Shown: positions 2,869 through 61,719 of the stretch, in pieces | Layout of the letters: the number at the start of each line of letters is the position of its first letter | How positions within the stretch are numbered: the first letter of the stretch is position 1 | Source of the DNA: Alphaproteobacteria bacterium | GTDB taxonomy: Bacteria; Pseudomonadota; Alphaproteobacteria; UBA9219 | NCBI GenBank assembly: GCA_031291395.1 | Contig: JARLJD010000138.1 | Location: forward strand, 3,860 to 67,859 | Direction: 5' to 3' | Length of the DNA stretch: 64,000 bases | Notes under the pieces: model-generated | Told to the model about the DNA's origin: nothing | Databases searched by the model: none | The model's input: the letters and a program-made list of their open reading frames with translations, nothing else | Program-made: the position numbers and the translations under genes

Positions 2869-3642
2869 ATGCATACCTATCATCTTGACGCCTTTCTGTC
2901 CGGACATGTCTTCGCGTTTGTCCTGTTGTTGTCACGCATCGGCTCGGTCATGCTGTTGTTTCCGGGCATTGGCGAGCACTATGTCTCGGCGCGCGCGCGG
3001 CTGTTTTTTGCCTGTTTGATCTGCCTGTTGCTGCTTGAGCCGATGCTGCCCAGATTACCCGCTCTTCCGTCTGCTCCCGCGGAAATGGCGCGGATGGTCG
3101 GCTATGAGGTTATCGTCGGTCTTTTTTTTGGTACTTTGGTGCGACTTGTTTTTGGCGCTTTGGAATCGACCGGCATGATTATCGGCTTTACGACCGGTTT
3201 GTCGAACGCGACGATGATGAACCCCGCTTTGGCGACGCAAAGCCCTTTGCCCAGCGCCTTTCTCACTGCGGCGGGGTTGGCGCTGATTTTTATTACCGGG
3301 ATGGACCATTTTCTGATTCGCACCACGGTCGCGCTTTATGACATCTTTCCGGCCGGGGGAACTCTTATGACTGGGGATATAGCGAAAACCGTCATCAACG
3401 TCACCAATCAAAGCTTCGTTGTCGGTGTCGAGCTGGCGACGCCGTTTTTGGTCATGAGTCTGCTGCTTTACGCCGCCATGGGCATCATTCAGCGCCTGTT
3501 GCCTTCCGTGCAGGTTTTTATGGTTATGCTGCCGATCCAGATCTGGGGCGGGTTGATGATGTTCTTGCTAACGATCGCAGGAATATTGACGATCTGGCTG
3601 CGTTATATGGATCAATCTGTCGGCTCCTTTTTTCAAGGATGA
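2869..3642 (+). CDS. fliR: flagellar export apparatus protein FliR
   Basis: 257-aa polytopic membrane protein immediately after fliQ; FliR-like length and hydrophobic pattern. Confidence 0.85.
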   Translation: MHTYHLDAFLSGHVFAFVLLLSRIGSVMLLFPGIGEHYVSARARLFFACLICLLLLEPMLPRLPALPSAPAEMARMVGYEVIVGLFFGTLVRLVFGALESTGMIIGFTTGLSNATMMNPALATQSPLPSAFLTAAGLALIFITGMDHFLIRTTVALYDIFPAGGTLMTGDIAKTVINVTNQSFVVGVELATPFLVMSLLLYAAMGIIQRLLPSVQVFMVMLPIQIWGGLMMFLLTIAGILTIWLRYMDQSVGSFFQG

Positions 3643-3648
3643 TCCTCG

Positions 3649-4719
3649 ATGGCCAGCGAAGACGATAAAGAAGACAAAACCGAGGCCCCGTCCGGCAAGC
3701 GATTGGACGATGCGCGCGAACGCGGCCAGATTCCGGTCAGCAGGGAAACCGCGATGTGGGTGGAGCTTCTGGGCGTATTGGTGGTTGTTGCCTTGGTCAT
3801 TCCGCCGATGATGCGGCAAATGGCAGATTATTTGCGCGGCTTTATCGAAGAGGCGCATACGTTTCAGCTTGATGAAAACAATGTGCAGCCTTTGTTTTTT
3901 CAGATTTTTGGCCGGATAACGCTGATTACCGGCGTCGCTTTTGGTCTTATGGTCGCCGCCGTGGTGGCAGGCTATATGATACAAACGGGCTTTTTTTACT
4001 CGCTTGAATTATTAGCGCCGGATTTTTCGCGTTTGCTGCCGACCAATGGATTAAAGCGTTTGTTTTCGACGGACTCGCTGGTCAATCTGGGCAAAAGTTT
4101 TGGAAAACTCGCCTTTCTGGGAGGCATCGCCTATGCCGTTTTGAAACCGGTCGCCGTTGAAGCGCCGGGCTATACGGGATTGCCGATTGAGGCCATGCTG
4201 CTTTTTCTGCATAAGAAGGTTGTGCATTTGATCGAGATGCTGCTGGTGGTTTTCACGGCGATTGCGGCGGTCGACCTGTTCTGGACGCGCTTTCAATATA
4301 CCCGCAATCTGCGCATGACCAAGGTCGAGGTCAAGGATGAGCGCAAGGAACAGGAAGGCGATCCGATGATCAAGGGACGCCTGCGCCAGATGCGCATCGA
4401 ACGCGCGCGCAAGCGCATGATGGCGCAAGTGCCCAAAGCCGACGTCGTCATCACCAACCCGACGCACTATGCCGTGGCATTGCAGTACGACGCCAAGCAA
4501 ATGGCCGCGCCCGTCGTCGTCGCCAAAGGCATCAATCTGATTGCGGAGCGCATTCGCGAGATTGCCGAGGAACACCGCATTCCCTTGGTCAGCAACCCGC
4601 CTCTGGCGCGCGCGCTTCACGACTCAGTCGAGGTCGACCAACAGATTCCCAACCAGCATTACCGCGCCGTGGCCGAGGTGATCTCGTATGTTTACAAATT
4701 GAGGAAGAGGAAGTTTTAG
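3649..4719 (+). CDS. flhB: flagellar export switch protein FlhB
   Basis: 356 aa; N-terminal MASEDDKEDKTEAPSGKRLDDARERGQIPVS and the NPTH autocleavage motif (VITNPTHYAVAL). Confidence 0.9.
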   Translation: MASEDDKEDKTEAPSGKRLDDARERGQIPVSRETAMWVELLGVLVVVALVIPPMMRQMADYLRGFIEEAHTFQLDENNVQPLFFQIFGRITLITGVAFGLMVAAVVAGYMIQTGFFYSLELLAPDFSRLLPTNGLKRLFSTDSLVNLGKSFGKLAFLGGIAYAVLKPVAVEAPGYTGLPIEAMLLFLHKKVVHLIEMLLVVFTAIAAVDLFWTRFQYTRNLRMTKVEVKDERKEQEGDPMIKGRLRQMRIERARKRMMAQVPKADVVITNPTHYAVALQYDAKQMAAPVVVAKGINLIAERIREIAEEHRIPLVSNPPLARALHDSVEVDQQIPNQHYRAVAEVISYVYKLRKRKF

Positions 4720-14316: not shown

Positions 14317-14988
14317 TTACGGATGGGGGGCGAGGGTATTGCCAAATTCCCCCATCGTCAGCACGGTTCTGGAAACAATTTTCCCGCCCGCCTTTTTAAG
14401 CTGGTTTTCATACCATTCTCGGTCGCTTTCAACCAACTGACGCGCCGCTGTTATCTTGACAACCGTTGGCATCATGAACGTATGGTTGGGGATTCCCAAA
14501 TTCACATATCGACCCCGTGCGTTCATGCTGATAAGATAGGTTGGGTAGAGAAGTTGGATTGGTACTCCGCTGTTATTGCCGATTTTTTCCAGCTTTATGC
14601 CTGTTGCGGCCAATTCAATACTCGCAATTGAAAATTGTCGACAGAAAACGACGGGTTTTTTATTTGCGCGGGGAACTAAAATAACGCCACTTACGACAAT
14701 TCGTGACGTATCACGCGGATCTCGTTTTGCGCTTGTGACAAAAACATTGTTGTAGGGATCGTCAAAATTCTCGACGACGGGTTTGGATAAACACTTGTAT
14801 GCAACACCGAACGCGAACGCTCCGCCGCCCAGTCCCCAAGCGGGGTTAATTCCAGCGAATTTCAGCGCGAAGGAAGTCACGATGGAAGTAACGGCAAAAA
14901 TCGGAACACCCAGCCTTACTATCGCTTTTCCTGAATTATTTGCCATCCATGTTACAAACTTCCCCTGATCTTTTTCTGTTTCGGACAT
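14317..14988 (-). CDS. hypothetical membrane-anchored protein (no recognised domain) in a lower-GC islet
   Basis: 223 aa, one N-terminal TM helix (IVRLGVPIFAVTSIVTSFALKFAGI); region visibly AT-richer than its flanks. Confidence 0.5.
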   Translation of the reverse strand: MSETEKDQGKFVTWMANNSGKAIVRLGVPIFAVTSIVTSFALKFAGINPAWGLGGGAFAFGVAYKCLSKPVVENFDDPYNNVFVTSAKRDPRDTSRIVVSGVILVPRANKKPVVFCRQFSIASIELAATGIKLEKIGNNSGVPIQLLYPTYLISMNARGRYVNLGIPNHTFMMPTVVKITAARQLVESDREWYENQLKKAGGKIVSRTVLTMGEFGNTLAPHP

Positions 14989-21865: not shown

Positions 21866-23509
21866 TCAGTTTTGAGGAATAACAGGACACAGGCTCAACT
21901 GCATATCATCAAAAAGACGATCCGTCACGCTTTGGCAATTTTGGGGCAGCACTTTAAGTCCAAAATAAGCCACGGCTTTCTCGGCGACATTGATCTGAAA
22001 CGAGGGGATCAGAATCATAAACCGCCCTCCGGCCTTGCGATGCGCGTCGACACGTTCGTGGAGCAGAAGATTGATGCCTTTGCCGTCGTCGGGGCTGGAA
22101 AAATTGCTTTGAATGCGCACAAAGGAAATGTTCGGCGGAAATTCGGGGATCAGATGGGAATAAGGTTCAATCCCCGCCATAAGAATCATCAGATGCGAGG
22201 TATCGCCCAGATCGGGAATTTTCGCCTCGACAAAACGGTCGAGCCATTCTCCGCGCCGATGCCAGTTGCCCGGCTGAACCGAAAGCGCGACGATCGTCAA
22301 CGTAAACGCCGCGAGCAAGCCGCGCGTTGTTATTTTGAGCGGCAACATGCCGATCGCAAACACGATCAAAAGCGGCGAGATCATCTCAATCGGCACGGCA
22401 TAGCGATAGATTGTGAACAGCGTCAGCCACACGATATAGGCGATCGAAAAACTCGCAAGCAAGTAACGCGCAGGATAGGGCGCGGCCAAGGCGTCGTTCG
22501 CTGCGCGATTGCGGCCGAAAAACAGGCGCAGCATCAGGCACAGCGGCAATAGCGCGTACAAAAGAGGCAGGCGCCAGTCGCGCCACGCGATCTCGCCGAC
22601 GCGAAAGGGGCTGTGGGCGAAAAGGAAGGGCATCAGCAGAAAATCGCTTAAGCTGCGCGGAACATATTCCGTGTCGCGGCCGCCTACAGGCGGCGCAAGC
22701 GGCGAATGGAAGATCTGGTTAAAATAGGGGAACAACGGGCTGCCGAAATGGCTTTGCAAAAAGACCGCCCAATAACCGAACGTCACGGCGCAGCCAAGCA
22801 AAACGCCGAGGCCGAAGGCGAAGCTCAACCACAGCCCGTGCTTCAAGCTTCCGCCGACAAACAACAACCCGCCGCAAAGCCCGACGGCAAAAATGACGCT
22901 GGGCAGCTTCAACCCCATCATCATGCCCGCAGGTACGCCGAAAGCCAGAGCCAGCGCGAACACGCGCGCGGGCTTGTCGATGGAAAGGCGTTGCAGGTGG
23001 CGCACGATCAATGCGGCGGAGAGAAACACGCCGAGGCTGGTGATGTTGTCGCCGAACGTCGTGCCGATCAGCGCGATTCCGCCGCCGCCCAGCATGCCAA
23101 GGGCGGCCAGCGCGGCGCAGACGAAAACCTTATGCCGCGGATTTGGCACAATCAGCGTGACCTGCGCGATCATGAACAACAGGATAAAATTCAGCCCCTG
23201 AACAAAACCCAGAACAAAACCGACGGTCTTTGCCGCGACATGCGTCGCCAAAAGAAAAAACGGCACGTCCAGAAGCGGATTATAAAAATAAGGAATCTGC
23301 GACGGCAACAAATCCCGCGCATAGCGATCGTTCAGAAAAGCATAGGCGTTGTAGAAATGATAATTTCTCAAATCCCAATTAGCGTCTTGCCCCAGCGCCA
23401 CCGCCAGCAAGCCAAAAGCGAAAGGCGCGACGCACAAAATCGCCAGAGCTAAAGCCCGTGCGCGTTGCCCCTTGGCGGGGAGGAGGTGGGGGGAGTGAGG
23501 AAGAAACAT
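21866..23509 (-). CDS. polytopic GT-C-fold membrane glycosyltransferase (ArnT/PMT/DUF2029-like)
   Basis: 547 aa, >=12 predicted TM helices, N-terminal DANWDLRNYHFYNAYAFLNDR periplasmic-loop motif; genomic association with GT2 and GtrA genes. Confidence 0.55.
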   Translation of the reverse strand: MFLPHSPHLLPAKGQRARALALAILCVAPFAFGLLAVALGQDANWDLRNYHFYNAYAFLNDRYARDLLPSQIPYFYNPLLDVPFFLLATHVAAKTVGFVLGFVQGLNFILLFMIAQVTLIVPNPRHKVFVCAALAALGMLGGGGIALIGTTFGDNITSLGVFLSAALIVRHLQRLSIDKPARVFALALAFGVPAGMMMGLKLPSVIFAVGLCGGLLFVGGSLKHGLWLSFAFGLGVLLGCAVTFGYWAVFLQSHFGSPLFPYFNQIFHSPLAPPVGGRDTEYVPRSLSDFLLMPFLFAHSPFRVGEIAWRDWRLPLLYALLPLCLMLRLFFGRNRAANDALAAPYPARYLLASFSIAYIVWLTLFTIYRYAVPIEMISPLLIVFAIGMLPLKITTRGLLAAFTLTIVALSVQPGNWHRRGEWLDRFVEAKIPDLGDTSHLMILMAGIEPYSHLIPEFPPNISFVRIQSNFSSPDDGKGINLLLHERVDAHRKAGGRFMILIPSFQINVAEKAVAYFGLKVLPQNCQSVTDRLFDDMQLSLCPVIPQN

Positions 23510-23621: not shown

Positions 23622-24395
23622 TTACCTTCCCCCCGCCCCCGTAAGGGGGATCGTCGCTGCGGGCGCGGGAGCAGAGAACGAATCCGGCGACGAGGCTAAC
23701 GATCCCGCCTTGCCGGTTCCGAGCACCGGAGCTTGCGGTGCGGGCTGTTCAAGGGATTGGCTCTGCACGGTGGCAACAGGAGCCGCGCCGGTCTGCACGG
23801 CGGTAACGCCGTAAACCGGAGGTTGCATGACAAAATTTGCCATATGGGTTCCGATGCCGGATTCGAGATTCTGCCCCAAATCTTTCATCAATCCGTTCAA
23901 CATGGTGAAATAGGCATCCTGCTTTTCGATCGGCGTGGGATCTTCCGGCAGCGTCAGAACGCGCGACGCCGAGGCGTCGGTCATGGCATATCCCGATTTG
24001 CCGTTGGCCTCGATGGAAACATCGGCATGTCCCATGTATTTCAAGCCCTGCTGGCGGGTGAACCAGCTGTCGATGTCGTCTTTGGTCGGCAAGGGCTGAA
24101 CCGTCAATGACGCGTCCTTGATGATGACAATTGCCTCTCCCGACTCGCCGCCCGCCTGCAGACGATCGCCCGCCCATTTTCTGATCGCCTCGGCAATCGT
24201 CGGCGAGAAATGATCGCTGGCATAGAGCGATCCAGGCCCTTGCGAATTGCTGCGGTCGGCCAATCTGATCGTATGCACATCCATAACGATTTTAGGCGGC
24301 AAAGCCTGAGAAACAGGCGCAGGCGGCGGCAACGGATCGTCCGCACAAGCCGAAAGCGCAAGGATCATACCGAAAACAGCGACTAGTTTTTTCAT
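23622..24395 (-). CDS. hypothetical lipoprotein
   Basis: 257 aa; signal peptide plus lipobox MKKLVAVFGMILALSAC; Pro/Ala-rich N- and C-terminal low-complexity tails; no recognised domain. Confidence 0.5.
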   Translation of the reverse strand: MKKLVAVFGMILALSACADDPLPPPAPVSQALPPKIVMDVHTIRLADRSNSQGPGSLYASDHFSPTIAEAIRKWAGDRLQAGGESGEAIVIIKDASLTVQPLPTKDDIDSWFTRQQGLKYMGHADVSIEANGKSGYAMTDASASRVLTLPEDPTPIEKQDAYFTMLNGLMKDLGQNLESGIGTHMANFVMQPPVYGVTAVQTGAAPVATVQSQSLEQPAPQAPVLGTGKAGSLASSPDSFSAPAPAATIPLTGAGGR

Positions 24396-44933: not shown

Positions 44934-46817
44934 CTAAAAACTTGATTGCCCGATTCTTGTCATATCGACATTGCGGCGCAGTTCGTCGAGGCTGGTTTCT
45001 TGGCGCAGGACTTTGGCGATGCCGTCGGCGGACATGGGACGAAATCCTTCGTACGCTGCCTGTTTGCGCAAAGCCGACTGTGGCGCGTCGTTCGCGATCA
45101 ATTCATCCATTTGTGGCGTGATGCGCAGAATCTCGGTCACGGCGCAGCGGCCGCGATAGCCTGTTTGGTTGCAATGATCGCAACCTTTGGCCTCGGCAAT
45201 CATCAGGGGGGCGTCGATTGATATTTGCGCCTCAGCAAATTCCTTGTTGCAAAGAGCCGCACGGACTCCCTCTCCCCCTTCTTGGGGGGAGAGGGTCGGG
45301 GTGAGGGGGGGGTGAGGGATATAACCACAATCGCCCCCCTCACCCAACCTTCTCCCCCCGGTGGGGGGAGAGGTCTTTGCTCCGCGCAAAATCTCCATTT
45401 CCTGAACCGTCGCCGTTCGCGCGCGTTTGCATTTCGGGCATAGCTTGCGCACCAGCCGTTGCGCCACAATGCCGCTGATATTCTCTGCCATGATACGTGA
45501 GGACAAACCCAAATCGTTTAACCGCGGCAGCGCGCCGAAAACATCGTTGCAGTGCAACGTCGTGAAAACCTGATGCCCCGTCATCGCCGCGCGCAGCGCC
45601 ATTCGCGCCGTATCGTCGTCACGCACTTCGCCGACAAAAATAATGTCAGGCGCTTGCCGCAAAATGCCGCGCACGCCTTCGGCAAAGGTCAGCCCTTGCT
45701 GCTCCTGAATGGCGGTTTGGCGGATCATCTCGAATTGATATTCGACCGGCTCTTCCAACGTCATGATGTTGACTTCGACGGTGCTGAGCCGTTTCAGCAT
45801 CGCGTAAAGCGTCGTCGTCTTGCCGCTGCCGGTCGGCCCCGTAACCAAAACAACGCCTTCAGGCCGTTCCAGAATCCCGTCAAGTTGCGTCAAAGCCTTT
45901 GCGTCATAGCCCAGCTTTTCCAAAGGCAGCAAAGCGCGGCGGTGATCGAGGATGCGGATAACAATATTTTCGCCCTGAACCGTCGGCATCACCGCCATAC
46001 GGAAATCGATGTCCGCGCTGCCGATTTGCATGTGGAAACGCCCGTCTTGCATGCTGCGCGTATCGGCGATGTTCATGCCCGCCATAATTTTCAGCCGATG
46101 CGACAATTCCGGCCAGTGCGAGCGGTGCAAAGCGTGTTTCTGCCTCAAAACCCCGTCCACGCGCACACGCAGGCGCACAAAGGAATTTTCAGGCTCCAAA
46201 TGAATGTCCGAAGCCCCTTCGCGCACGGCGTCCGTCAGGATGTTGTTGACGAGGCGAATGACGGGGTGTTGCCACGCCTCGCCTTCTTGCGCCAGCGTCG
46301 CTGCGACGCCTTCCAGTTCCGACAAAATAGCGTCGAAATCGACGTTCGTGCGCGCGTGCGCGTCGATCGCGTCCAGAATAGCCGTTTCGGCGGCGATCAG
46401 CGGGACGATCTCGATCTGGCGCGGAAAATAACGCCGCACTTCGTCCAGCGCCTTGATGTCGTGCGGGTCGGCCATCGCCAGATGCAAGACGTTTCCGTCG
46501 AACGCGACCGGCGCGGCGCGGCACCGCTCGGCCACAAGGCGCGGCAAGCGGCGCATCGCCTCGGGATCAATGTCGATATTCTTCAGTTCGACGGCGTCGC
46601 GCCCCGTATGCGCGGCAAGCGCGTTCGCCAGAATTTCGTCGTTGATGAAGCCCAGCTTGACCAAAGTCGCGCCCAACCGTTCTCCCCCGCGCCGCTGCTC
46701 ATGCAGGGCGATTTGCAGTTCGTCCTGCGTGATGAAATCGCCGCGCAGTAGACGTTCGCCGAGGCGAAGGGGCTTGTTTTTATCGCTGTCGTTGCGCAGA
46801 GCGGCGACTTTGCTCAT
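44934..46817 (-). CDS. type II secretion/type IV pilus assembly ATPase (GspE/PilB/MshE family) with tandem MshEN-type N-terminal motifs and an in-frame REP insertion in the C-terminal zinc-finger region
   Basis: 627 aa; RLGERLLRGDFITQDELQIALHEQ and RLGATLVKLGFINDEILANALAAH motifs; Walker A GPTGSGKTTT; CPKC ... CDHC tetracysteine split by the peptide [32 protein letters not shown]. Confidence 0.85.
   Translation of the reverse strand: MSKVAALRNDSDKNKPLRLGERLLRGDFITQDELQIALHEQRRGGERLGATLVKLGFINDEILANALAAHTGRDAVELKNIDIDPEAMRRLPRLVAERCRAAPVAFDGNVLHLAMADPHDIKALDEVRRYFPRQIEIVPLIAAETAILDAIDAHARTNVDFDAILSELEGVAATLAQEGEAWQHPVIRLVNNILTDAVREGASDIHLEPENSFVRLRVRVDGVLRQKHALHRSHWPELSHRLKIMAGMNIADTRSMQDGRFHMQIGSADIDFRMAVMPTVQGENIVIRILDHRRALLPLEKLGYDAKALTQLDGILERPEGVVLVTGPTGSGKTTTLYAMLKRLSTVEVNIMTLEEPVEYQFEMIRQTAIQEQQGLTFAEGVRGILRQAPDIIFVGEVRDDDTARMALRAAMTGHQVFTTLHCNDVFGALPRLNDLGLSSRIMAENISGIVAQRLVRKLCPKCKRARTATVQEMEILRGAKTSPPTGGRRLGEGGDCGYIPHPPLTPTLSPQEGGEGVRAALCNKEFAEAQISIDAPLMIAEAKGCDHCNQTGYRGRCAVTEILRITPQMDELIANDAPQSALRKQAAYEGFRPMSADGIAKVLRQETSLDELRRNVDMTRIGQSSF
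45262..45376. repeat. REP/MITE family-1 copy inserted in frame within the GspE/MshE-like ATPase gene
   Basis: gactccctctcccccttcttggggggagagggtcggggtgaggggggggtgaggg ... cgcccccctcacccaaccttctccccccggtggggggagaggtc. Confidence 0.65.
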
Positions 46818-46820
46818 GCG

Positions 46821-47762
46821 TCACCACGTCGTATTGCATGCGCCGTTCCCGAACATGCTGACCAGCGCGTTGCGGTCGGCGTAGGCGAGGACGTCGTCGT
46901 AAGGATCGGTATCTCCTACGACGGTCATAGCGTCGACGAAATTCGCCGTGCCTGCGGCGTTACATTTAGGATAACCGCTATAGGCGCTGCAAGGGTTGTA
47001 GGTTGCAGATGATGGATTGTTTGGTGGCGATGGAAACGGCATTTGCCACCCTTGTTGGAGACTTGCAACATAAGAACCGTAGCCGGTCGAACCATAACTG
47101 ACGAAAATGACAGCGGCTTTCTGCGATGTGCCGTTTGGCGTCGATACAGTGATAGGTACGGCGTTGCTGGCCGCGCTAAGATTGTATTTGCATAGCCCTT
47201 TATCCGAATATCCGACCGGCGAACCGCTTTGCGCCGCACAGTACCCGCTGCTGTAATCGGCGGTTGTGCAAAGGGCGGTTGGAGGAATAAATATATAATT
47301 GGAACAGGAGTTGCTCGCAGTCCCGCAATTCGCGGGGTTTGTCAGCGCCGGATCAACTCGCATCGTGATCCAGTGTCCCCAGCCGTCATGCGCGGTCGAT
47401 GCGGGAAGGCCGAGGGAGACATAAGGCGGAATGCCTTCGGGCGACGAGCAGATGCCGCAGGCATTTGGCGTCGGTTTGCCGCTGGTATTTATTATGTAAC
47501 TTGTTTCTGTCCCAAAACCGGTTCCGCTCGTAGCGGCGGGGCAGGGGAGGCAGCCGTTGGCCTGAACATAAGCCGCGGTCGCCAGCATCAGGCTGCGCAG
47601 GTTGCTTTGCGTCAGGGACAGTTGGTTGGCGGAACGGACTGTGTTCAGCGCAGGTAGAACCGTCAGCATCACAAGCCCCATAACGACCAAAACCACGGCC
47701 ATTTCGACGAGGGTGAAGCCAGAGCGCGATGTATCGTCTTTGGAACAAAAAACGACGGTCAT
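46821..47762 (-). CDS. large Cys-rich prepilin-type protein (type IV pilin/pseudopilin-like, class III signal); ORF extends to 48044 through a REP
   Basis: MTVVFCSKDDTSRSGFTLVEMAVVLVVMGLV prepilin leader with G/FTLVE cleavage-methylation motif; 14 Cys in the mature region; GGAGAGGGG RBS comes from the adjacent REP. Confidence 0.6.
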   Translation of the reverse strand: MTVVFCSKDDTSRSGFTLVEMAVVLVVMGLVMLTVLPALNTVRSANQLSLTQSNLRSLMLATAAYVQANGCLPCPAATSGTGFGTETSYIINTSGKPTPNACGICSSPEGIPPYVSLGLPASTAHDGWGHWITMRVDPALTNPANCGTASNSCSNYIFIPPTALCTTADYSSGYCAAQSGSPVGYSDKGLCKYNLSAASNAVPITVSTPNGTSQKAAVIFVSYGSTGYGSYVASLQQGWQMPFPSPPNNPSSATYNPCSAYSGYPKCNAAGTANFVDAMTVVGDTDPYDDVLAYADRNALVSMFGNGACNTTW

Positions 47763-47968
47763 AGCCCCTCTCCGCCCGCCCTTGCGGGGGGAGAGGGGAG
47801 ATGCCGACGTTCGAGCAAGAGCAAAAGGTTGAATGGGGTGAGGTGGGTGGTCGAGGGCGTGAATAATCTTCGGAACCCACCTCACCCCTTTCGTTCTGCC
47901 GCTCTTGTCCCGCGTTCTGTCCCTCCCCTCTCCCCCCGCAAGCGCGGGCGGAGAGGGGTTATCAGCGC
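47763..47968. repeat. REP/MITE family-1 long variant abutting the start codon of the Cys-rich pilin gene
   Basis: near-identical to the 20578 copy (gaatggggtgaggtgggtggtcgagggc ... cccacctcacccc; outer gcccctctccgcccgcccttgcggggggagagggg). Confidence 0.6.
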
Positions 47969-48028
47969 CGTTTCCGTTGTTGAAGAGCAGGGGGCTTTCC
48001 ATAATTGTTTTTCCAGCCTTTGCCTTCC

Positions 48029-48688
48029 TTACATCTGCATGCACATCGTATAAGTCTTTGAGGAGTCATAAGTAGCGGCGACGGTGCCATTTACAGCTTC
48101 GCCGACAGTACCCGTTGAAATCATCGCTTGAATCGATCCACTGTTGCTAACTCCGTCATCAAGGCGCGAGTCAATGGCTGACGCCGCATCCCCTGGCACA
48201 CCGTTGAGGCATAAGACGTTGGTTGTAAAAACTCCGTTGAAAGCGCCGTGCTGGAATCCATAAATACCTCCAAACGGATTAACTGGCTGGCTGGCGTCGG
48301 TTCCCGCGCCTTTGACAAGTCCTGCGGCGCGTAAATCCGCCCACAACAAATTGGTTTCTGCGTAATTTTCTGTGCCACTTGTTGTTGGCGTATTGTCGAA
48401 GGAGCCTTCAAGAGTGCCGTTGCCATTTCCGCTTGCGGGTATGCCGGCACTCGGAAAACGTGTCGTCGAAGCAAGCGCGTCGTCGCCCGGCATCGCGCCA
48501 TAGTTTTGCGTATAGGTTTGGAACTGCGCTTCATAAGCCTGAATGGAATTGATCACGTTCGTGACCTGCGCGTTTTGCATGATCTGCCTGCCGGTCAGAA
48601 CGCCGCCGATGATCAGGCCGATGATGACGAGAACGATCGAAAGCTCGACCAGCGTAAAACCGGCATTGCGTTGCTTTTTCCTTATCAT
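48029..48688 (-). CDS. type IV pilin-like protein (prepilin-type N-terminal cleavage/methylation domain); ORF extends to 48919
   Basis: MIRKKQRNAGFTLVELSIVLVIIGLIIGGV; GGAGAAAACAG RBS; Gly/Thr/Asn-rich C-terminal domain; 13 bp after the secretin gene. Confidence 0.7.
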   Translation of the reverse strand: MIRKKQRNAGFTLVELSIVLVIIGLIIGGVLTGRQIMQNAQVTNVINSIQAYEAQFQTYTQNYGAMPGDDALASTTRFPSAGIPASGNGNGTLEGSFDNTPTTSGTENYAETNLLWADLRAAGLVKGAGTDASQPVNPFGGIYGFQHGAFNGVFTTNVLCLNGVPGDAASAIDSRLDDGVSNSGSIQAMISTGTVGEAVNGTVAATYDSSKTYTMCMQM

Positions 48689-48701
48689 CTGTTTTCTCCG
48701 T

Positions 48702-50492
48702 CTAGAGGGTGGAATCGGAATCGTCGTCGTTATCATTGGCGGAAGGTTTGGCTGGAGCGCTGGGAATCTCCATCGGCCTTGGATCGTTGTTGTAATGCTG
48801 GTAAAGTTCGCTATCGGCTTTGTCGGGCGCGGGTTGATCCGCGATCGTGGCGCGCAGCAGGATGACAAGCTCGCTGGTCTTGCCTTCGTTGTCGCGCGAC
48901 TTGAACAGATTTCCGGCATAGGGAATGTCCGCCATGCCCGGCACGCCCTGATCCGTGTTGATCGAGCTGTCTTGCATCAAACCGCCCATGATCGCGATCT
49001 CGCCCGAGTGAAGCTGGATCACGGAATCCATCTCGCGCACCGCCAGAACCGGAATTTGCGATTGGACGGAAGTCGTCACGCCCGCGACGGCCGCGTTGAG
49101 GCTAATCGACGGATCATTGACTTCCCCTACCACGCGCGAAATTGTCGGGCGCAACGTCATTGTCACCCGATTGTGTTCCGCGTCGATGGAAGGCTGCACC
49201 GTCATCACAAGCCCGACCGGAACCGTGCGCGGGGTGCTGGTGTAAATCGGATTGGTAGTGATCGACGCGCCGCTGGCGTTGGTCGTGGTCGTGAATTGCG
49301 CCTGCGTGACGAAATAAACCTGATTGGTGGCGACTTTCATCACGGCGGTTTGATTGTTCAAAACGGTGATCCGTGGCGCAGACAAAACCCGCGTCGTGCC
49401 GAAAGTCTGAACCAGATTGATCATGCTGTTGAAACTGGTTCCCGTGACGCTGGCGGTAAAAACGCCGTTCGCGTTCAACGCCGCCTGCGTGCCGAAATTG
49501 GAAGCGATGCCGACCGTGTTTTTGAATACCCCATTCCAATCGATGCCCGATTGATAGCCGTCATCCAGCTCGACCTCGATGATCCGCGCGTCGATCAAGA
49601 CTTGCGCGTCGGCCTTACGGCGCAATTCCACGAAATATTTTTCGATAGCTTGCTGTTGCTTCTGAGTGCCGTAAACGGTGACCATGCCCGCTTGCTTATC
49701 GATGCTGAAATTGGCTTTTCCGTTCGATTTGCTCTCCCCCGCGCCCAAAATCTGTGCGATCGATTTTTCCGTTTCCGCCCAGAAATCGGCGTCGGACGTG
49801 CCGGAAACTTTGGCGGTCGAATTGTTCTCGGTCGAGGTCGAGCCGAGATTGCCGTTACCCGACGCGCCTGATGTCGTGCCGTTCGCGCCGACATCGACAT
49901 CGAACACATTGGTGGCAATAGAGGTATTGCTGGATGTTTTCCGCGCGAGGCTAAGGTAATCGAGGCGATAGGATTTCTGATAAGGATCGTCCGGTTCGAT
50001 ATGGATGAACGCGCCGTCGATCGTGTAACGCAAATTCGCCATAGTGCAGACGCGTTTCAGGATTTGCCCGAAAGGCTGATCGTGCGCGGTAAGGATGACG
50101 CTGCCTTGCACGCGCGGGTCGAGCTCAAGGTTCGCGCCCGTTTTGCGCACCAGCTCCATCAACACGTCGCGCACGGGGACGGTGTCCGTGACGGTCACGC
50201 TGACCCGTTTATCCAAAAGCGGATTTGATCCAACCGCATCGGATTCCTCTTCCGGCATTTTGGGAATGGGGGGGATGGAGGTTTTTTTTTCGGCTTCGGC
50301 CGTATTGGGCTTCTGGCGGTTGCGCAAAGCCATATAATCTTCGCGGCTCAATCCGCCCGTAGGGTCGATATTGCCAGTTGTCAAAAGCCCCGCCGACGGC
50401 GTGCAGCCTTGCACGATCAACAGGGACAGAATTAAAAGTATCAGATGAGGAAGAAGCCGCAGCTTCATGGGAATTAACAAAAAGTTAACCAT
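48702..50492 (-). CDS. secretin (GspD/PilQ family) outer-membrane channel lipoprotein
   Basis: 596 aa; lipobox LLIVQGC; secretin N domain; C-terminal secretin core VLIDARIIEVELDD ... GGLMQDSSINTDQGVPGMADIPYAGNLFKS ... VILLRATI. Confidence 0.85.
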   Translation of the reverse strand: MVNFLLIPMKLRLLPHLILLILSLLIVQGCTPSAGLLTTGNIDPTGGLSREDYMALRNRQKPNTAEAEKKTSIPPIPKMPEEESDAVGSNPLLDKRVSVTVTDTVPVRDVLMELVRKTGANLELDPRVQGSVILTAHDQPFGQILKRVCTMANLRYTIDGAFIHIEPDDPYQKSYRLDYLSLARKTSSNTSIATNVFDVDVGANGTTSGASGNGNLGSTSTENNSTAKVSGTSDADFWAETEKSIAQILGAGESKSNGKANFSIDKQAGMVTVYGTQKQQQAIEKYFVELRRKADAQVLIDARIIEVELDDGYQSGIDWNGVFKNTVGIASNFGTQAALNANGVFTASVTGTSFNSMINLVQTFGTTRVLSAPRITVLNNQTAVMKVATNQVYFVTQAQFTTTTNASGASITTNPIYTSTPRTVPVGLVMTVQPSIDAEHNRVTMTLRPTISRVVGEVNDPSISLNAAVAGVTTSVQSQIPVLAVREMDSVIQLHSGEIAIMGGLMQDSSINTDQGVPGMADIPYAGNLFKSRDNEGKTSELVILLRATIADQPAPDKADSELYQHYNNDPRPMEIPSAPAKPSANDNDDDSDSTL

Positions 50493-50645: not shown

Positions 50646-51368
50646 ATGTCAGGACAATTTTTCACAAAGCAGGCACAGGAAAACTCCCTGTCCAACCGCA
50701 TCTTATGGTGGGCATTCGGTATAAAAATCGGTTATCTGGACAATATAGACCCGCAGTTTCTGGCGTCTCAAAAAGATTTCTGGATGTTGAGCAAAGATTT
50801 TTACACGCTCGCGCAGGTTCGTAAAGCTGAATGGGTGCAGAGATTCAGCAATCCCGATCAAACAACAACGCTGGTTGCCGTGGATCATCTAAGCCCGAAC
50901 ATGGCTTCTGTTGCGACGATGGATCCTTACAAAACAACGGAATTACAGAAAAATGATTCTAACTGGATGGTTAAACGCCTTCAAGAGATCATGGCGCCGG
51001 TTGTGAAGGGGACGCCCGAAGATCAAAAACAAGCGTGCATGGAACGCAATAAATTGTTGGGTCATTCGAGGCTGCCTGCGCAAGTCGTTATCGCCGGAGA
51101 TAATGTTCTTTCGCTTCAATTTTACACAACCAACCCCATGCGCGGCCCTTTGTTTGGCATCAAGGCCGATAAGAGGAGAGGGGGGCTGGCGCGCGCTATC
51201 TATGATTATGGGGTTGGGATTATTCAAAAAGTCATTTGCGGCGAAACGATTGAACGAAAGAGCGAAGACGGCACGACCCAAGAACCGATTGTTTTGTCAC
51301 CGGCAAGAAATATGTGGGGAGACGATTTGTCTCATGTGAAAGAGGATTTGCGCGCCAAACTTGGCTGA
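50646..51368 (+). CDS. hypothetical cytoplasmic protein in a low-GC segment, divergent from the secretin gene
   Basis: 240 aa; no signal peptide, no motif recognised; AT-rich coding sequence and an AT-rich 150-bp divergent promoter region. Confidence 0.5.
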   Translation: MSGQFFTKQAQENSLSNRILWWAFGIKIGYLDNIDPQFLASQKDFWMLSKDFYTLAQVRKAEWVQRFSNPDQTTTLVAVDHLSPNMASVATMDPYKTTELQKNDSNWMVKRLQEIMAPVVKGTPEDQKQACMERNKLLGHSRLPAQVVIAGDNVLSLQFYTTNPMRGPLFGIKADKRRGGLARAIYDYGVGIIQKVICGETIERKSEDGTTQEPIVLSPARNMWGDDLSHVKEDLRAKLG

Positions 51369-52297: not shown

Positions 52298-52567
52298 ATG
52301 AACGTCATTGCAGACACCTATGTTCGCGCGCGCATCGACGCGGGAACAAAGAACAAAGCCGCCGCCGCGCTCGGAAAAATGGGGCTTTCCGTATCGGACG
52401 CCATTCGCCTCTTGATGTTGCGGATAGCTGACGAAAAGCGATTGCCGTTTGAAGTCAAGGCGCCCAATGCCGCAACGCGTCGCGCCCTTTCGGAACTGGA
52501 TGCCGGAAAGGCGAAGGGCTTTACCAGCGTTGAAGCTTTAATGGCAGATTTGCATGCGGACGATTAA
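52298..52567 (+). CDS. dinJ: DinJ/RelB-family antitoxin
   Basis: 89 aa; RHH-type N-terminus; overlaps the downstream YafQ-like toxin gene by 14 bp. Confidence 0.75.
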   Translation: MNVIADTYVRARIDAGTKNKAAAALGKMGLSVSDAIRLLMLRIADEKRLPFEVKAPNAATRRALSELDAGKAKGFTSVEALMADLHADD

Positions 52568-52835
52568 TCGGCCGATCTCTTTCAAGAGAGATTTTAAGCG
52601 CGAGGCAAAGGGAAAGCACAGAGCCAATCTTGACGCTAACCTTGCGTCGGTTCTGGCGGCGTTGGCAACGGATGTTCCGTTGGAACCGCATCAACGCGAC
52701 CACGCTTTAGGCGGTCATTGGCACGGGTGTCGAGAATGCCATATTAAACCTGATTTGCTTCTGATTTATCGCAAACCGGACAGCGAAACATTGGAATTGG
52801 TTCGGCTTGGCTCTCATAGCGAACTGTTTGGATAA
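52554..52835 (+). CDS. yafQ: YafQ-type RelE/ParE-family mRNA interferase toxin
   Basis: 93 aa; [24 protein letters not shown] ... [24 protein letters not shown] typical of YafQ. Confidence 0.75.
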
Positions 52836-56187: not shown

Positions 56188-56625
56188 GTGAGTCAATTGT
56201 CCACCCTGAGAGTTCTGATTGCCGACGACCATTTTTTGATCCGGCAATTTGTCCGCAATACGCTGAAAGAATCGAAAATCGAGAACGTTCAGACGGCGGC
56301 TGACGGCAACGAGGCGATCGACCTTGTGCAAAAATCCCGTCAGGCAGGACAGCCTTACGACATCGTTTTCCTTGATTGGAACATGCCGACGATTTCCGGG
56401 CTTGAGGTTTTGAGTTATTTCCGCGCCAAGCCTGAATATGCGGACACGGCTTTCGTCATGTTGACTGCGGAATCCGAACAGCAAAACATCATGAAGGCGA
56501 TCAAGGCCGGTGCGACTTCTTACATCGTTAAGCCGGTTTCCCCCGCCGATCTCGGCAAGAAGTTGTTCGAAATCAACGAATGGCTTAAACGCAAGCGCCA
56601 GGTTTCCGGCGGCATTTTCGGTTAA
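56188..56625 (+). CDS. single-domain CheY-like response regulator (GTG start)
   Basis: 145 aa; VLIADDHFLIR, DIVFLDWNMP (phospho-acceptor Asp), TAES, KPV; no output domain. Confidence 0.8.
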   Translation: MSQLSTLRVLIADDHFLIRQFVRNTLKESKIENVQTAADGNEAIDLVQKSRQAGQPYDIVFLDWNMPTISGLEVLSYFRAKPEYADTAFVMLTAESEQQNIMKAIKAGATSYIVKPVSPADLGKKLFEINEWLKRKRQVSGGIFG

Positions 56626-56638
56626 GGGGATCTCCCGC

Positions 56639-57160
56639 ATGTCCCATCCGCAAAAACAGCTTTCCCTTGACGAGGTTCTGGCAAAGGATATCACCCTCGC
56701 CGTCATTCGCTCGCTGCGCGAGACTTTCGCCATCGACGTCATTGCGGGCGTCCCCGAATTCGGCGACGGCATGGTGTCTCTCGTCGGCGATATTTCCGGC
56801 ATCATCGGCATGGTGCAGAAGCAGCTTGAAGGCACGTTGCTGCTTTGCATGACGTTCGAGACGGTGCGCGACATATTGCCGCAAGTCGTCGGCAAATCTG
56901 TGACGGTAACGCATGAAATGGCGGTCGATGCCGTCGGCGAATTGACGAATATGATCTTCGGTCAGGTCAAAAACGAGCTGAACCAGCGTGAATATCAGAT
57001 CAAGCTAGGTATTCCTTGCGTCGTGACCGGTAAGGGGCACTTTGTCTGCCAGTTCCATCGCGGCAAATACATGATTATCCCGTTCCATCTTGATGGGCAG
57101 TTGTTTCAGGTCTACGTCGCTTTGCATGAGAAGCCTGCGGCGGTCGCCAGCGAGGATTAG
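56639..57160 (+). CDS. CheX/CheC-like phosphatase family protein (ORF begins at 56510)
   Basis: 173 aa; AVGELTNMIFGQV matches the E-x2-N CheC/CheX active-site motif; located between a CheY-like RR and an HPt kinase. Confidence 0.6.
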   Translation: MSHPQKQLSLDEVLAKDITLAVIRSLRETFAIDVIAGVPEFGDGMVSLVGDISGIIGMVQKQLEGTLLLCMTFETVRDILPQVVGKSVTVTHEMAVDAVGELTNMIFGQVKNELNQREYQIKLGIPCVVTGKGHFVCQFHRGKYMIIPFHLDGQLFQVYVALHEKPAAVASED

Positions 57161-57211
57161 CGGATCGCCTTACGGCTCGCCTGCCGCACATATTCAGATT
57201 GAAAGATTTTT

Positions 57212-58951
57212 ATGTCCGAAATGAGTGACCTGTCCACGATCATCGTCGAGGCGACGGCTCAGCCGAAACCGCCTGTGGGGCGTCGTCGTTCCGTCCTTAA
57301 CGCGGCGGCGCGTCAGGTGGACGTCCTGCATACCTCTCTTATGGGGATGACGGCGATTGTCATTGTCCTGATGCTGGCTGTCGCGCTGCCGGTTTTCGGT
57401 TATGCGCCGGTGACGGGCAAAGGCAGCTTTTACATTATCGCGGCGACGACGTTCGGCGGCATCGCGTATCTCTATTACCTTAACTACACGGTTTACAAGC
57501 TGGTCAGCGACCACGACCGCCTGAACGAGGTGCTTGTCAACAGTCTGGGGCAGGGCTTTCTGTCGTTCGGGCCGGACGGCGTATGCGACGATGTTTATTC
57601 GCAGGCGTGCCTCGATTTGCTGGAAGAGGCGCCGTCCGGCAAAAACATCATGGATGTGTTGCGCGTACCGGAAGAAGGACGCCAGGATTTCAGGGATTGG
57701 CTCGATGTATTGTTCATGCCCGATCATGCGCTTGGTTTTCAGGATGTCGTTAATTTTCTGCCGCAATTTTTTCCGCATCCCGAAAAGCGCCGCGTGACCC
57801 TCGTATACAGGCCGATTTATTCCAGACCCCGCGTTCTGGAACGTGTGGTTTTAATCGCGACCGACGAAACCGAAGAACATGAAGCGCAGCAATTGGCCAA
57901 GCAGCGGCAGGACTTTGCCGATATGATTTGCCGCATCTTCCGCGAGCGCAACCAGTTCTTGGCCACGATCACGCATGTGCGCACGTTTCTGGAGCAAGCG
58001 GCCATCCCCGTGTCGCGCGAGGAATCGACGTCGATCATGCGCCTGTTGCACACCTTGAAGGCGGCGGTGAAGCATTTTCATCTCAAAGACCTTGCCGAAA
58101 CGGTGCACACGCTGGAATCCGAATTGCGCAGCGAGGCCATAACCTCCGACGAACAGTTTATGCAGGTGATGGAGGCGGGACGCCGATGCATCGGCAAGGA
58201 ACTGTCCGACGTTCTTGAAAACATCAAGGATTTGATCGGGCAGGATTACGAACGGCGCGGCAATACGCACGAAATCGAGGAAAGCGCTTTGTACAGCTTT
58301 GCTCTGGTCATGGGCGTGGCGGGCGTCAAATCCGATGTCATTGATCACTATATGCGCTTTATCGTCGCGCGGCCGATCGAGGATTGCATCCGCCAGTTTG
58401 AGCGTGAATTGGTTGACCTTGCCGAAATTACCGGCAAACAGCTGAAGCCGGTCAGGTTTTGCGGCTCCAATCCGCCGATCCTTACGCGCAATTTTCAGGC
58501 GCTGCTTTTCTCCTTGACGCACATCTCCCGCAACATCATCGATCACGGCATCGAACCTGCCGTAACCAGATTGGCGCGCAACAAGGATCCCGCCGGATTG
58601 GTAACAGTTACCACCGATGTTGTGACAAGCGAGGGGAGCGATAAGAAATGGCTGGCGTTGTCGATTGCCGACGATGGCTGCGGCATCGATCCGGCGCGCG
58701 TACGCGCCAAACTTTCCGCCGTGTCGCCTAACGGCGCGTGGCGCGAACAGGACGATCACGCCGTGATCCAGAACGTTTTCTCGTTCGGTTTCTCAACCCG
58801 CGACTGCGCAACTGAGCTGTCGGGCCGCGGCGTTGGGATGGAAGTTGTCGAGCGCGAGGTTAAGGCCTTGGGCGGCACGATCGAGGTCTTCTCCGAACTT
58901 TATCGCGGAACCAGATTTGAAATACGGGTGCCGTATTCGCTGGAGGTTTAG
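57212..58951 (+). CDS. membrane-anchored CheA-like histidine kinase: 2 TM + putative PAS-like region + HPt (P1-like) + HATPase_c, no CheW-like P5 domain
   Basis: 579 aa; TM helices at residues ~45-100; IMRLLHTLKAAVKHFHL HPt histidine motif; C-terminal GRGVGMEVVEREVKALGGTIEV ATP-lid/G2 box, protein ends right after it. Confidence 0.7.
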   Translation: MSEMSDLSTIIVEATAQPKPPVGRRRSVLNAAARQVDVLHTSLMGMTAIVIVLMLAVALPVFGYAPVTGKGSFYIIAATTFGGIAYLYYLNYTVYKLVSDHDRLNEVLVNSLGQGFLSFGPDGVCDDVYSQACLDLLEEAPSGKNIMDVLRVPEEGRQDFRDWLDVLFMPDHALGFQDVVNFLPQFFPHPEKRRVTLVYRPIYSRPRVLERVVLIATDETEEHEAQQLAKQRQDFADMICRIFRERNQFLATITHVRTFLEQAAIPVSREESTSIMRLLHTLKAAVKHFHLKDLAETVHTLESELRSEAITSDEQFMQVMEAGRRCIGKELSDVLENIKDLIGQDYERRGNTHEIEESALYSFALVMGVAGVKSDVIDHYMRFIVARPIEDCIRQFERELVDLAEITGKQLKPVRFCGSNPPILTRNFQALLFSLTHISRNIIDHGIEPAVTRLARNKDPAGLVTVTTDVVTSEGSDKKWLALSIADDGCGIDPARVRAKLSAVSPNGAWREQDDHAVIQNVFSFGFSTRDCATELSGRGVGMEVVEREVKALGGTIEVFSELYRGTRFEIRVPYSLEV

Positions 58952-58974
58952 GAAAGAAATACGGCGCTTTTTTC

Positions 58975-59043
58975 GCAGGCACGGCTTCCAGCCGCGACCT
59001 TTTTGTGTTTGCGTCAACAGTCGCGGCTGGAAGCCGTGCCTGC
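58975..59043. terminator. long perfect inverted repeat (24-bp arms, 21-nt spacer) between the convergent HK and ABC genes; preceded by a conventional hairpin+T6 terminator at ~58931..58976
   Basis: gcaggcacggcttccagccgcgac ... gtcgcggctggaagccgtgcctgc; upstream gccgtattc...gaaatacggcgc tttttt. Confidence 0.5.
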
Positions 59044-59056
59044 GAGAGGATAAACT

Positions 59057-61629: not shown

Positions 61630-61719
61630 GGAGAGGTGGCAGAGCGGTCGAATGCGGCGGTCTCGAAAACCGTTATAGGTCTATGCCTATCAAGGGTTCG
61701 AATCCCTTCCTCTCCGCCA
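61630..61719 (+). tRNA. tRNA-Ser (anticodon CGA), class II with long variable arm
   Basis: 7-bp acceptor stem ggagagg/cctctcc, D loop agcggtcgaa, anticodon loop ctCGAaa, 5-bp variable-arm stem atagg/cctat, T loop ttcgaat, discriminator g + CCA. Confidence 0.85.

Follow-up and report, generated by a model that had tools for sequence, protein, structure and literature searches.

A 64,000-nucleotide (nt) stretch of contig JARLJD010000138.1 from an Alphaproteobacteria bacterium of the UBA9219 lineage (assembly GCA_031291395.1, positions 3,860 to 67,859 of the forward strand), hereafter the window, contains at 56188-58951 (+) three co-directional open reading frames (ORFs) that encode a CheY-like response regulator, a CheX-family protein and a 579-aa kinase. 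As judged from its sequence, the kinase belongs to a large and conserved family of sensor kinases built on the P1 and P4 domains of CheA. We consider it probable that the trio is a self-contained two-component module, made of chemotaxis-type parts that are wired like an ordinary sensor kinase. A first-pass annotation of the same DNA had read three co-directional genes here, and they are indeed present on the plus strand with the following limits.

56188..56625 (+): CheY-like single-domain response regulator, 145 aa, with a GTG start and an AAGGAG Shine-Dalgarno sequence 7 nt upstream.
56639..57160 (+): CheX-family phosphatase, 173 aa from an ATG; the mechanical ORF begins at GTG 56510.
57212..58951 (+): sensor kinase, 579 aa, with membrane hairpin, PAS, CheA-P1-type HPt, short linker and CheA-P4-type ATPase.

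Five segments are distinguished in the kinase, partly from an AlphaFold2 (AF2) model with a mean predicted local distance difference test score (pLDDT) of 70.8 and a predicted template-modelling score (pTM) of 0.38.

57341..57499 (+): membrane hairpin, residues ~44-96 (hydropathy, AF2 helices 27-58 and 70-109).
57521..57868 (+): PAS-fold module, residues ~104-219 (Pfam in relatives, AF2 fold).
57953..58222 (+): HPt domain of CheA-P1 type, residues 248-337 (Pfam Hpt, hhalign).
58280..58375 (+): P3 remnant/linker, helices 357-369 and 374-384 (AF2, permissive hhalign).
58376..58948 (+): CheA-P4-type ATP-binding catalytic domain (phmmer, hhalign, Foldseek).

The two catalytic parts of the kinase were recognized by Pfam profiles, Hpt at residues 248-337 (E=1.7e-7, above the cut-off) and HATPase_c at 435-575 (E=7e-15), and the combination of HPt and HATPase domains without a CheW-like P5, as first read from the sequence, is confirmed. 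The sequence motifs cited for it, GQGFLSF... at residue 113 and LHTLKAA at residue 279, are both present. In profile-profile comparison with five genuine annotated CheAs, residues 251-334 aligned to the CheA P1 domain with a probability of 95.6%, and H280 fell on the phospho-accepting histidine of CheA. In the AF2 model this region (220-348) folds into four helices, with H280 on the second. H280 (codon 58049-58051) is the predicted autophosphorylation site. Residues K283, H299 and E302 follow at +3, +19 and +22, the spacing of H46/K49/H65/E68, which are invariant in the five CheAs, and of the H48/K51/H67/E70 tetrad in E. coli CheA. Among 134 distant family representatives (25-41% identical), H280 is present in 100%, K283 in 120, H299 in 113 and E302 in 121.

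The catalytic domain, too, is clearly of CheA type. It contains an N box HxxRNxxDHGIE (437-448), a G1 box DDGxGID (487), an F box GFST and a G2 box SGRGVGM (537), and N441, D487, D488, G489, G491, G538, G540 and G542 are invariant. For the C-terminal 190 residues, a phmmer search of the PDB found CheA at E=4e-26; all matches down to 1e-21 were CheA, and CheA alone was found until E=0.005. The hhalign probability for P4 is 100%, and Foldseek gave TM-scores of 0.7-0.79 to CheA P4 crystal structures. Other CheA domains are lacking. The protein ends at the equivalent of E. coli CheA residue 510, where P5 would begin, and the CheW Pfam family is found in 0/70 relatives scanned with Pfam, so the proposed lack of a CheW-like P5 stands. 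Between HPt and P4, the AF2 model shows a disordered loop and two helices of 11-13 residues. In greedy hhalign alignments, residues 359-388 match no more of P3 than the last part of its helix 2, together with the P3-P4 linker; P3 helix 1 and P2 have no counterpart in the kinase. Hence, helices 357-384 are a P3 remnant and not a dimerization hairpin.

An ordinary HisKA-type sensor kinase, its H-box overlooked by eye, would have the same succession of transmembrane (TM) segments, PAS, helical region and ATPase, and Foldseek aligns full-length LOV/PAS histidine kinases with the whole model. This explanation is extremely improbable. No Pfam match to HisKA, H-kinase_dim or CheW was found in the kinase even at E<=1, and the same three families are absent from all 70 scanned relatives at E<=0.001, so the H-box missing from the region before the HATPase is missing from the profiles as well. 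Moreover, the helical region is an HPt four-helix bundle that matches CheA P1, and the PDB matches of the ATPase are CheA only until E=0.005. The ordinary HisKA kinase was rejected on these grounds.

The kinase is far from isolated. An NCBI protein from a metagenome-assembled genome (MAG) labelled 'Alphaproteobacteria bacterium' has the identical sequence (100%), and more than 120 full-length homologues (54-76% identity, 560-610 aa) have their C-terminus at the same place. When 1.84 billion cluster representatives were searched exhaustively with a profile, 5,681 proteins came up at E<=1e-30. Each of the best 150 of these matched in one single stretch, profile positions ~100-578, which corresponds to the PAS+HPt+P4 unit, while the N-termini ahead of this unit vary widely in length. 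In the 70 relatives scanned, Pfam identified HATPase_c in 70, Hpt in 65, HAMP in 20 and PAS in 15; CHASE, CHASE4, GAF, Cache and MASE6 domains turn up occasionally. No tail after P4 exceeds 28 aa among the 134 representatives (median 6.5 aa), and none of these proteins has a P5. The same core is thus joined to HAMP, PAS, CHASE, GAF, Cache or 4HB_MCP inputs, or served by a separate FIST protein, and therefore behaves as a true sensor-kinase transmitter. The trio had at first been called an atypical chemotaxis-like phosphorelay; its kinase is not a one-off, being a member of a very large family.

These numbers also bear on the idea that a broken chemotaxis operon left a truncated or decaying CheA behind, or that the kinase is a product of mis-assembly. 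Many homologues are labelled 'CheA' at the Joint Genome Institute (JGI), and the window trio is placed differently from that of most relatives, as such an origin would allow. On the other hand, the more than 120 full-length homologues end alike with all catalytic residues invariant, the N-terminal hairpin and PAS have no CheA counterpart, the 134 distant representatives all lack P5, and the trio has intact operon signals. This conservation effectively refutes a truncated CheA or a pseudogene, which we regard as very improbable.

Within the family, P4 sequences share a mean identity of 36%, against 33% between family and CheA, and a neighbour-joining tree parts 70 family members from the five CheAs, a number so small that only the deep split can be read. 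Database names range over 'ATP-binding protein', 'Hpt domain-containing protein', 'PAS domain-containing protein' and, at JGI, 'CheA', which is wrong for these proteins. NCBIfam has no specific model for the kinase. A full-text literature search, which may miss a paper in a subscription journal, found no published description of HPt-HATPase sensor kinases without a CheW domain. The 'CheA-like' proteins of P. syringae and Halomonas papers were considered and set aside, as they are ordinary P5-containing CheAs.

The family extends beyond MAGs. A 797-aa member with 4HB_MCP_1, HAMP, HPt and HATPase domains is encoded on megaplasmid CP076412.1 of Ralstonia wenshanensis, a cultured betaproteobacterium (L078:3891-8392), where it is annotated only as 'HAMP domain-containing protein'. 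Downstream of it lie a 238-aa protein with no more than part of a methyl-accepting chemotaxis protein (MCP) signalling domain, then a hypothetical protein, then a receiver; the hypothetical protein was tried as a hidden CheX and rejected for lack of similarity. A subfamily of ~650 aa is common in Bdellovibrionota MAGs, and in one context there the kinase is followed by a receiver and then by a receiver-DnaJ protein.

In a 2023 survey of 13,673 CheAs, P1, P3, P4 and P5 occur in all, the CheW-like P5 in 100%, and CheA is described as having no sensor domain (PMC10782961). Measured by that definition, the kinase has P1 and P4 but no full P3, no P5 and a sensor of its own, and so is not a CheA. 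Nor is it a class I histidine kinase, because it has no HisKA. By its domain matches it appears to combine CheA-like chemistry with class I-like wiring. The proposal that a CheA-type kinase with its own sensor bypasses receptor and CheW is the best reading, given the P1 and P4 matches, the anchor and PAS fold, and the lack of P5.

Comparison with known systems sharpens this description. The chemotaxis core CheA-CheY-CheX, known best from Thermotoga maritima and Borrelia burgdorferi, has the three catalytic activities that are predicted for the trio, on homologous domains: a P1 HPt with the H/K/H/E tetrad, a P4, a receiver of CheY type and a CheX in which D-x3-E-x2-N is present. It differs in that the kinase here has no P5 or P2 and only a P3 stub, with its own membrane anchor and PAS fold instead. 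The energy-taxis receptor Aer resembles the kinase by its membrane hairpin with minimal periplasmic loop, its cytoplasmic PAS and its use of the CheA-type reaction. However, Aer is itself a chemoreceptor, dependent on CheW and a distinct CheA, with an FAD-binding PAS at its N-terminus, whereas the PAS of the kinase follows the hairpin and is fused directly to P1-P4. Class I PAS kinases such as FixL and engineered YF1/LOV also combine sensor and transmitter in one polypeptide, which agrees with the whole-model Foldseek match, and like the family they swap N-terminal sensor domains. In contrast, their phospho-histidine lies on a dimeric DHp/HisKA, not on a monomeric HPt bundle, and no DHp phosphatase motif is expected in the kinase, which fits the presence of CheX. 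ArcB, BarA and TorS, to which weak NCBIfam matches were found, have both HATPase_c and Hpt; their HPt is a relay after HisKA and receiver, whereas that of the kinase is the sole histidine domain, precedes the ATPase and has the CheA-P1 tetrad. Finally, CheA3/CheA4 of Rhodobacter sphaeroides and bipartite CheAs have split or lost domains and kept phosphotransfer (PMC10782961). Unlike the family, these atypical or split CheAs keep P5 and stay in receptor arrays (PMC10782961).

The sensor part of the kinase is less sharply defined. TM1 (~44-64) is strongly hydrophobic (KD19 = 2.6). After a loop of 8 residues, TM2 (~73-95) is weaker, with values below 1.6, and rich in aromatic residues and Gly; of the two TM helices proposed at first, one is thus clear and the other less so. 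G45, I49, P60, G83, L87 and N91 of the hairpin are invariant among orthologues, as are H40, S42 and L43 just before TM1. Since basic residues precede TM1, the segment would most simply form a hairpin whose two ends are cytoplasmic, without a periplasmic domain. The following module has AF2 strands at 115-119, 124-128, 186-188, 194-205 and 208-218, in a beta-beta-alpha...beta-beta-beta order. Over the homologous stretch, Pfam PAS_4, PAS_9 and PAS were found in 16, 10 and 10 of 30 relatives, respectively, with a best E of 3.6e-7. A search of PDB sequences with a PAS-core profile gave chance-level matches only (multicystatin, myosin light chains). Therefore, the PAS assignment is based on the Pfam matches in relatives and on the predicted fold; the PAS-like segment of the first-pass annotation is upheld to that extent, although Pfam calls none in the protein itself. 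C125 and C133 (57584-57610) are both Cys in 116 of the 134 representatives; where one is missing, the other tends to be missing too (Fisher p=0.006, uncorrected for phylogeny). As a lead only, the pair may be a redox or metal site. The PAS module is an invariant part of the family core and not a lineage-specific addition. Because it is invariant while N-terminal sensors vary, it presumably regulates the P1-P4 reaction, replacing control by P5, CheW and receptor. It may also provide dimerization.

As in the initial reading, the regulator consists of a receiver only (Pfam Response_reg E=3e-28), with no output domain. Its best PDB matches are all E. coli or Salmonella CheY (E=1.5e-24). Aligned with E. 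coli CheY, it is 42% identical and keeps the DD pair, DWNMP and the equivalents of T87, Y106 and K109. D13, D14, D62, T93 and K115 are invariant in 52 orthologues, and D62 in DWNMP is the predicted phospho-acceptor. With 95.8 bits against a cut-off of 189 for the NCBIfam CheY equivalog, the regulator is not an orthologue of E. coli-type CheY. Its P119 (56524-56526) lies at the position of Ala113 in E. coli CheY, which explains why structures of the CheY A113P mutant (3oo0/3oo1) are top PDB matches; A113P is an activating substitution in E. coli CheY.

The middle ORF had been read as a CheC/CheX-motif protein, and this was borne out by Pfam CheX (E=1.3e-16, 60.8 bits against a cut-off of 27) and by PDB matches to CheC-like 3h2d and 3iic and to CheX 6vpw (E=1e-18 to 3e-14). 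The 53 orthologues compared all keep the active-site motif D97-x3-E101-x2-N104...P126, and the protein is predicted to be a phosphatase of the phosphorylated regulator. The mechanical ORF from GTG 56510 overlaps the regulator gene and is probably over-extended. The true start is probably ATG 56639, 13 nt past the regulator stop, with an AAGGGG Shine-Dalgarno-like site; homologues start there (MSHPQKQ...).

The three genes belong together in other genomes too. A scan of one genome per GTDB species gave 77 loci, 55 of them orthologous, and the order and orientation regulator-CheX-kinase is kept in ~51 of the 55, the exceptions being cut by contig ends. Independent gene calls with Pfam labels agree on this synteny. 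Repeating the homologue search with a more diverse profile recovered the same close orthologues and added nothing. Among orthologues, the regulator is 58-96% identical, CheX 47-80% and the kinase 37-78%. The loci are recorded as uncultured Alphaproteobacteria, 'Rhodospirillaceae', 'Bdellovibrionales' and Micavibrio sp., and are those of uncultured Micavibrio-like Alphaproteobacteria. The trio lies co-directional and directly upstream of rpsM-rpsK-rpoA-rplQ in 36/50 orthologous loci, and directly downstream of secY-adk in 26/46. In many of them it is thus inside the ribosomal-protein supercluster (for example L001, L004/L084 (L084:7005-12792) and L015). No MCP or CheW adjoins it in the orthologous loci.

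The same MAGs hold a paralogous module with a CheY-like regulator, CheX, a protein of 383 aa with FIST_N and FIST_C, and a PAS-HPt-P4 kinase that is soluble and has no membrane anchor (L060:1852-5647, also in L056, L057 and L062), which suggests that a separate FIST sensor feeds the same kinase type.

In the window, the trio sits between rmuC and an ABC/HlyD gene pair, and is relocated, as far as gene order indicates, relative to most relatives. Its intergenic gaps are 13 nt (regulator-CheX) and 51 nt (CheX-kinase), and a further element follows on its 3' side.

58968..59050 (no strand assigned): putative terminator hairpin, unusually long, with a 31-bp perfect stem, after the stop codon of the kinase gene and before the convergently oriented ABC-ATPase gene.

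The RNA fold of this hairpin has -64.8 kcal/mol (z = -9.2), its arms occur only once within the window, and it includes a terminator-like site with a T-run at 58982. It is likely a bidirectional terminator that closes the operon. Given the short gaps, the Shine-Dalgarno sequence before the regulator and the strong hairpin 3' of the kinase, the trio looks like one operon. The first-pass annotation had described the trio as lacking MCP, CheW, CheB and CheR; none is present among the larger ORFs scanned, which were most of those with at least 200 aa in the window, but this does not extend to the whole genome.

From these parts, the following mechanism can be proposed. The kinase would sit in the inner membrane by a hairpin without periplasmic domain, with PAS, HPt and ATPase in the cytoplasm. 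Hairpin and PAS module would read a membrane-associated or cytoplasmic cue, for which redox or energy is one possibility in view of the conserved Cys pair and the Aer-like layout. The cue would gate access of the P4-type ATPase to H280 on the adjacent P1-type HPt, and the phosphoryl group would then pass from phospho-H280 to D62 of the CheY-like regulator. CheX, encoded between the regulator and kinase genes, would reset the signal quickly. Two-component biochemistry offers a reason for such a dedicated phosphatase, because HPt-type kinases would lack the DHp-borne phosphatase activity of HisKA kinases. Having no output domain, the regulator must act by binding another protein.

As to this target, the flagellar switch is our leading guess, a tentative one. 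The window carries fliR and flhB at 2869-4719 (+), alone between plsX-fabH and nadA-nadB-nadC, so the organism is, or was, flagellate; a FliM gene is absent from the window. The guess is based on these flagellar export genes, the CheY signatures (DWNMP, T87, Y106, K109), the CheX partner and the very high conservation of the regulator.

Several points weigh against the proposed module or its output. For the kinase itself, these are the moderate quality of the AlphaFold model, the weak hydrophobicity of TM2, on account of which its topology is deduced, and the absence of a Pfam PAS call in the window kinase. In addition, the kinase has neither P3 nor DHp through which it would dimerize, and the literature search found no experiment on any family member. 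For the flagellar output, only ~4/7 of the contact residues of E. coli CheY are kept in the regulator alignment. The usual site of the trio is the rpsM-rpsK-rpoA-rplQ neighbourhood, not that of motility genes, and no flagellar or pilus gene is syntenic with it in the orthologous loci. Furthermore, the canonical che clusters of Micavibrio aeruginosavorus have their own CheYs (supplement to PMC3189940).

The module could be real and its output lie outside motility, with the regulator driving a growth, cell-cycle or lifestyle switch through protein binding, as DivK, CpdR and Spo0F do; in Micavibrio-like predators this might perhaps be the transition from attack to attachment. We hold this for possible but rather doubtful. 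It agrees with the placement upstream of rpsM-rpsK-rpoA-rplQ and after secY-adk, with the missing synteny to flagellar or pilus genes, with the Bdellovibrionota relative whose kinase is paired with a receiver-DnaJ protein, and with the separate CheYs of the canonical che clusters in related organisms (supplement to PMC3189940). Against it, motor-binding CheYs are ~9 orders of magnitude ahead of non-CheY receivers among the PDB matches, the SLN1 receiver excepted, and the regulator keeps DWNMP and the Y106 and K109 equivalents. CheX phosphatases have also been studied mainly in motility pathways that need a fast reset.

Another explanation takes the kinase as an auxiliary phosphate source for canonical chemotaxis encoded elsewhere in the genome, that is, as a second, receptor-independent input (for example from energy state) to the same CheY pool or motor. 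The CheA-type P1 chemistry and the flagellate nature of the window organism (fliR/flhB) are compatible with it, and the cooperating atypical CheA proteins of Rhodobacter sphaeroides offer a loose parallel. The relative M. aeruginosavorus has full che clusters (supplement to PMC3189940). Yet the kinase has a dedicated, extremely conserved regulator and phosphatase of its own, which argues for an insulated pathway, and without P5 it has no known way into receptor arrays. An auxiliary source is thus unlikely. Since related organisms such as M. aeruginosavorus also have ordinary CheA/CheW/CheR/MCP clusters (supplement to PMC3189940), the self-contained module that we favour is probably an additional pathway and not a replacement.

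A broader interpretation, possible but unlikely in our view, is that PAS-P1-P4 kinases form an unrecognized third design of histidine kinase, with HPt chemistry gated by a fused sensor, either ancestral to array-coupled CheA or a parallel receptor-free taxis or behaviour pathway without methylation adaptation. If true, Micavibrio-like and Bdellovibrio-like lineages, many of them predatory, would link a redox or membrane cue to behaviour by a minimal pathway with one kinase.

CheA is the textbook kinase without sensing of its own, controlled only inside receptor-CheW arrays, and there is still debate on the way in which these arrays activate the P4-to-P1 reaction. The family could serve as a simpler natural system for the gating of this reaction, with a fused PAS, variable sensors and no P5, P3 or P2. 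In addition, under the survey definition of CheA as P1+P3+P4+P5, a sister group of considerable size goes without a class or bears the wrong label, 'CheA' or 'ATP-binding protein'. The main value of the finding lies in this natural system for CheA-type kinase control and in corrected database labels. The strict pairing with CheX supports the general rule that HPt-type kinases need an external phosphatase. For Micavibrio-like bacteria, the trio stands for a highly conserved pathway that is often embedded in the ribosomal-protein gene cluster.

The window also holds genes of other kinds. A pilus or type II secretion-like cluster at 44934-50492 (-) contains an MshE-type ATPase with MshEN domain, two pilin-like ORFs and a secretin with Secretin_N_2. 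The N-terminal methylation (prepilin) motifs of the two pilin-like ORFs lie ~80-105 residues into the ORF, so their starts are probably over-extended. Control of this nearby filament system by the trio had been suggested and finds no support: the MSHA-like pilus genes, rmuC, def, fmt, truA and ABC/HlyD that flank the trio in the window are not syntenic with it in other genomes. A tRNA-Ser(CGA) gene at 61630-61719 (+) lies ~2.7 kb downstream of the trio, with no integrase or repeat sign of an island boundary. No Pfam match at E<=1e-5 was obtained for the ORFs at 14317-14988 (-, 223 aa), 21866-23509 (-, 547 aa), 23622-24395 (-, 257 aa) and 50646-51368 (+, 240 aa). Finally, a RelB antitoxin/YafQ toxin pair is encoded by overlapping genes at 52298-52835 (+), between truA and fmt-def.

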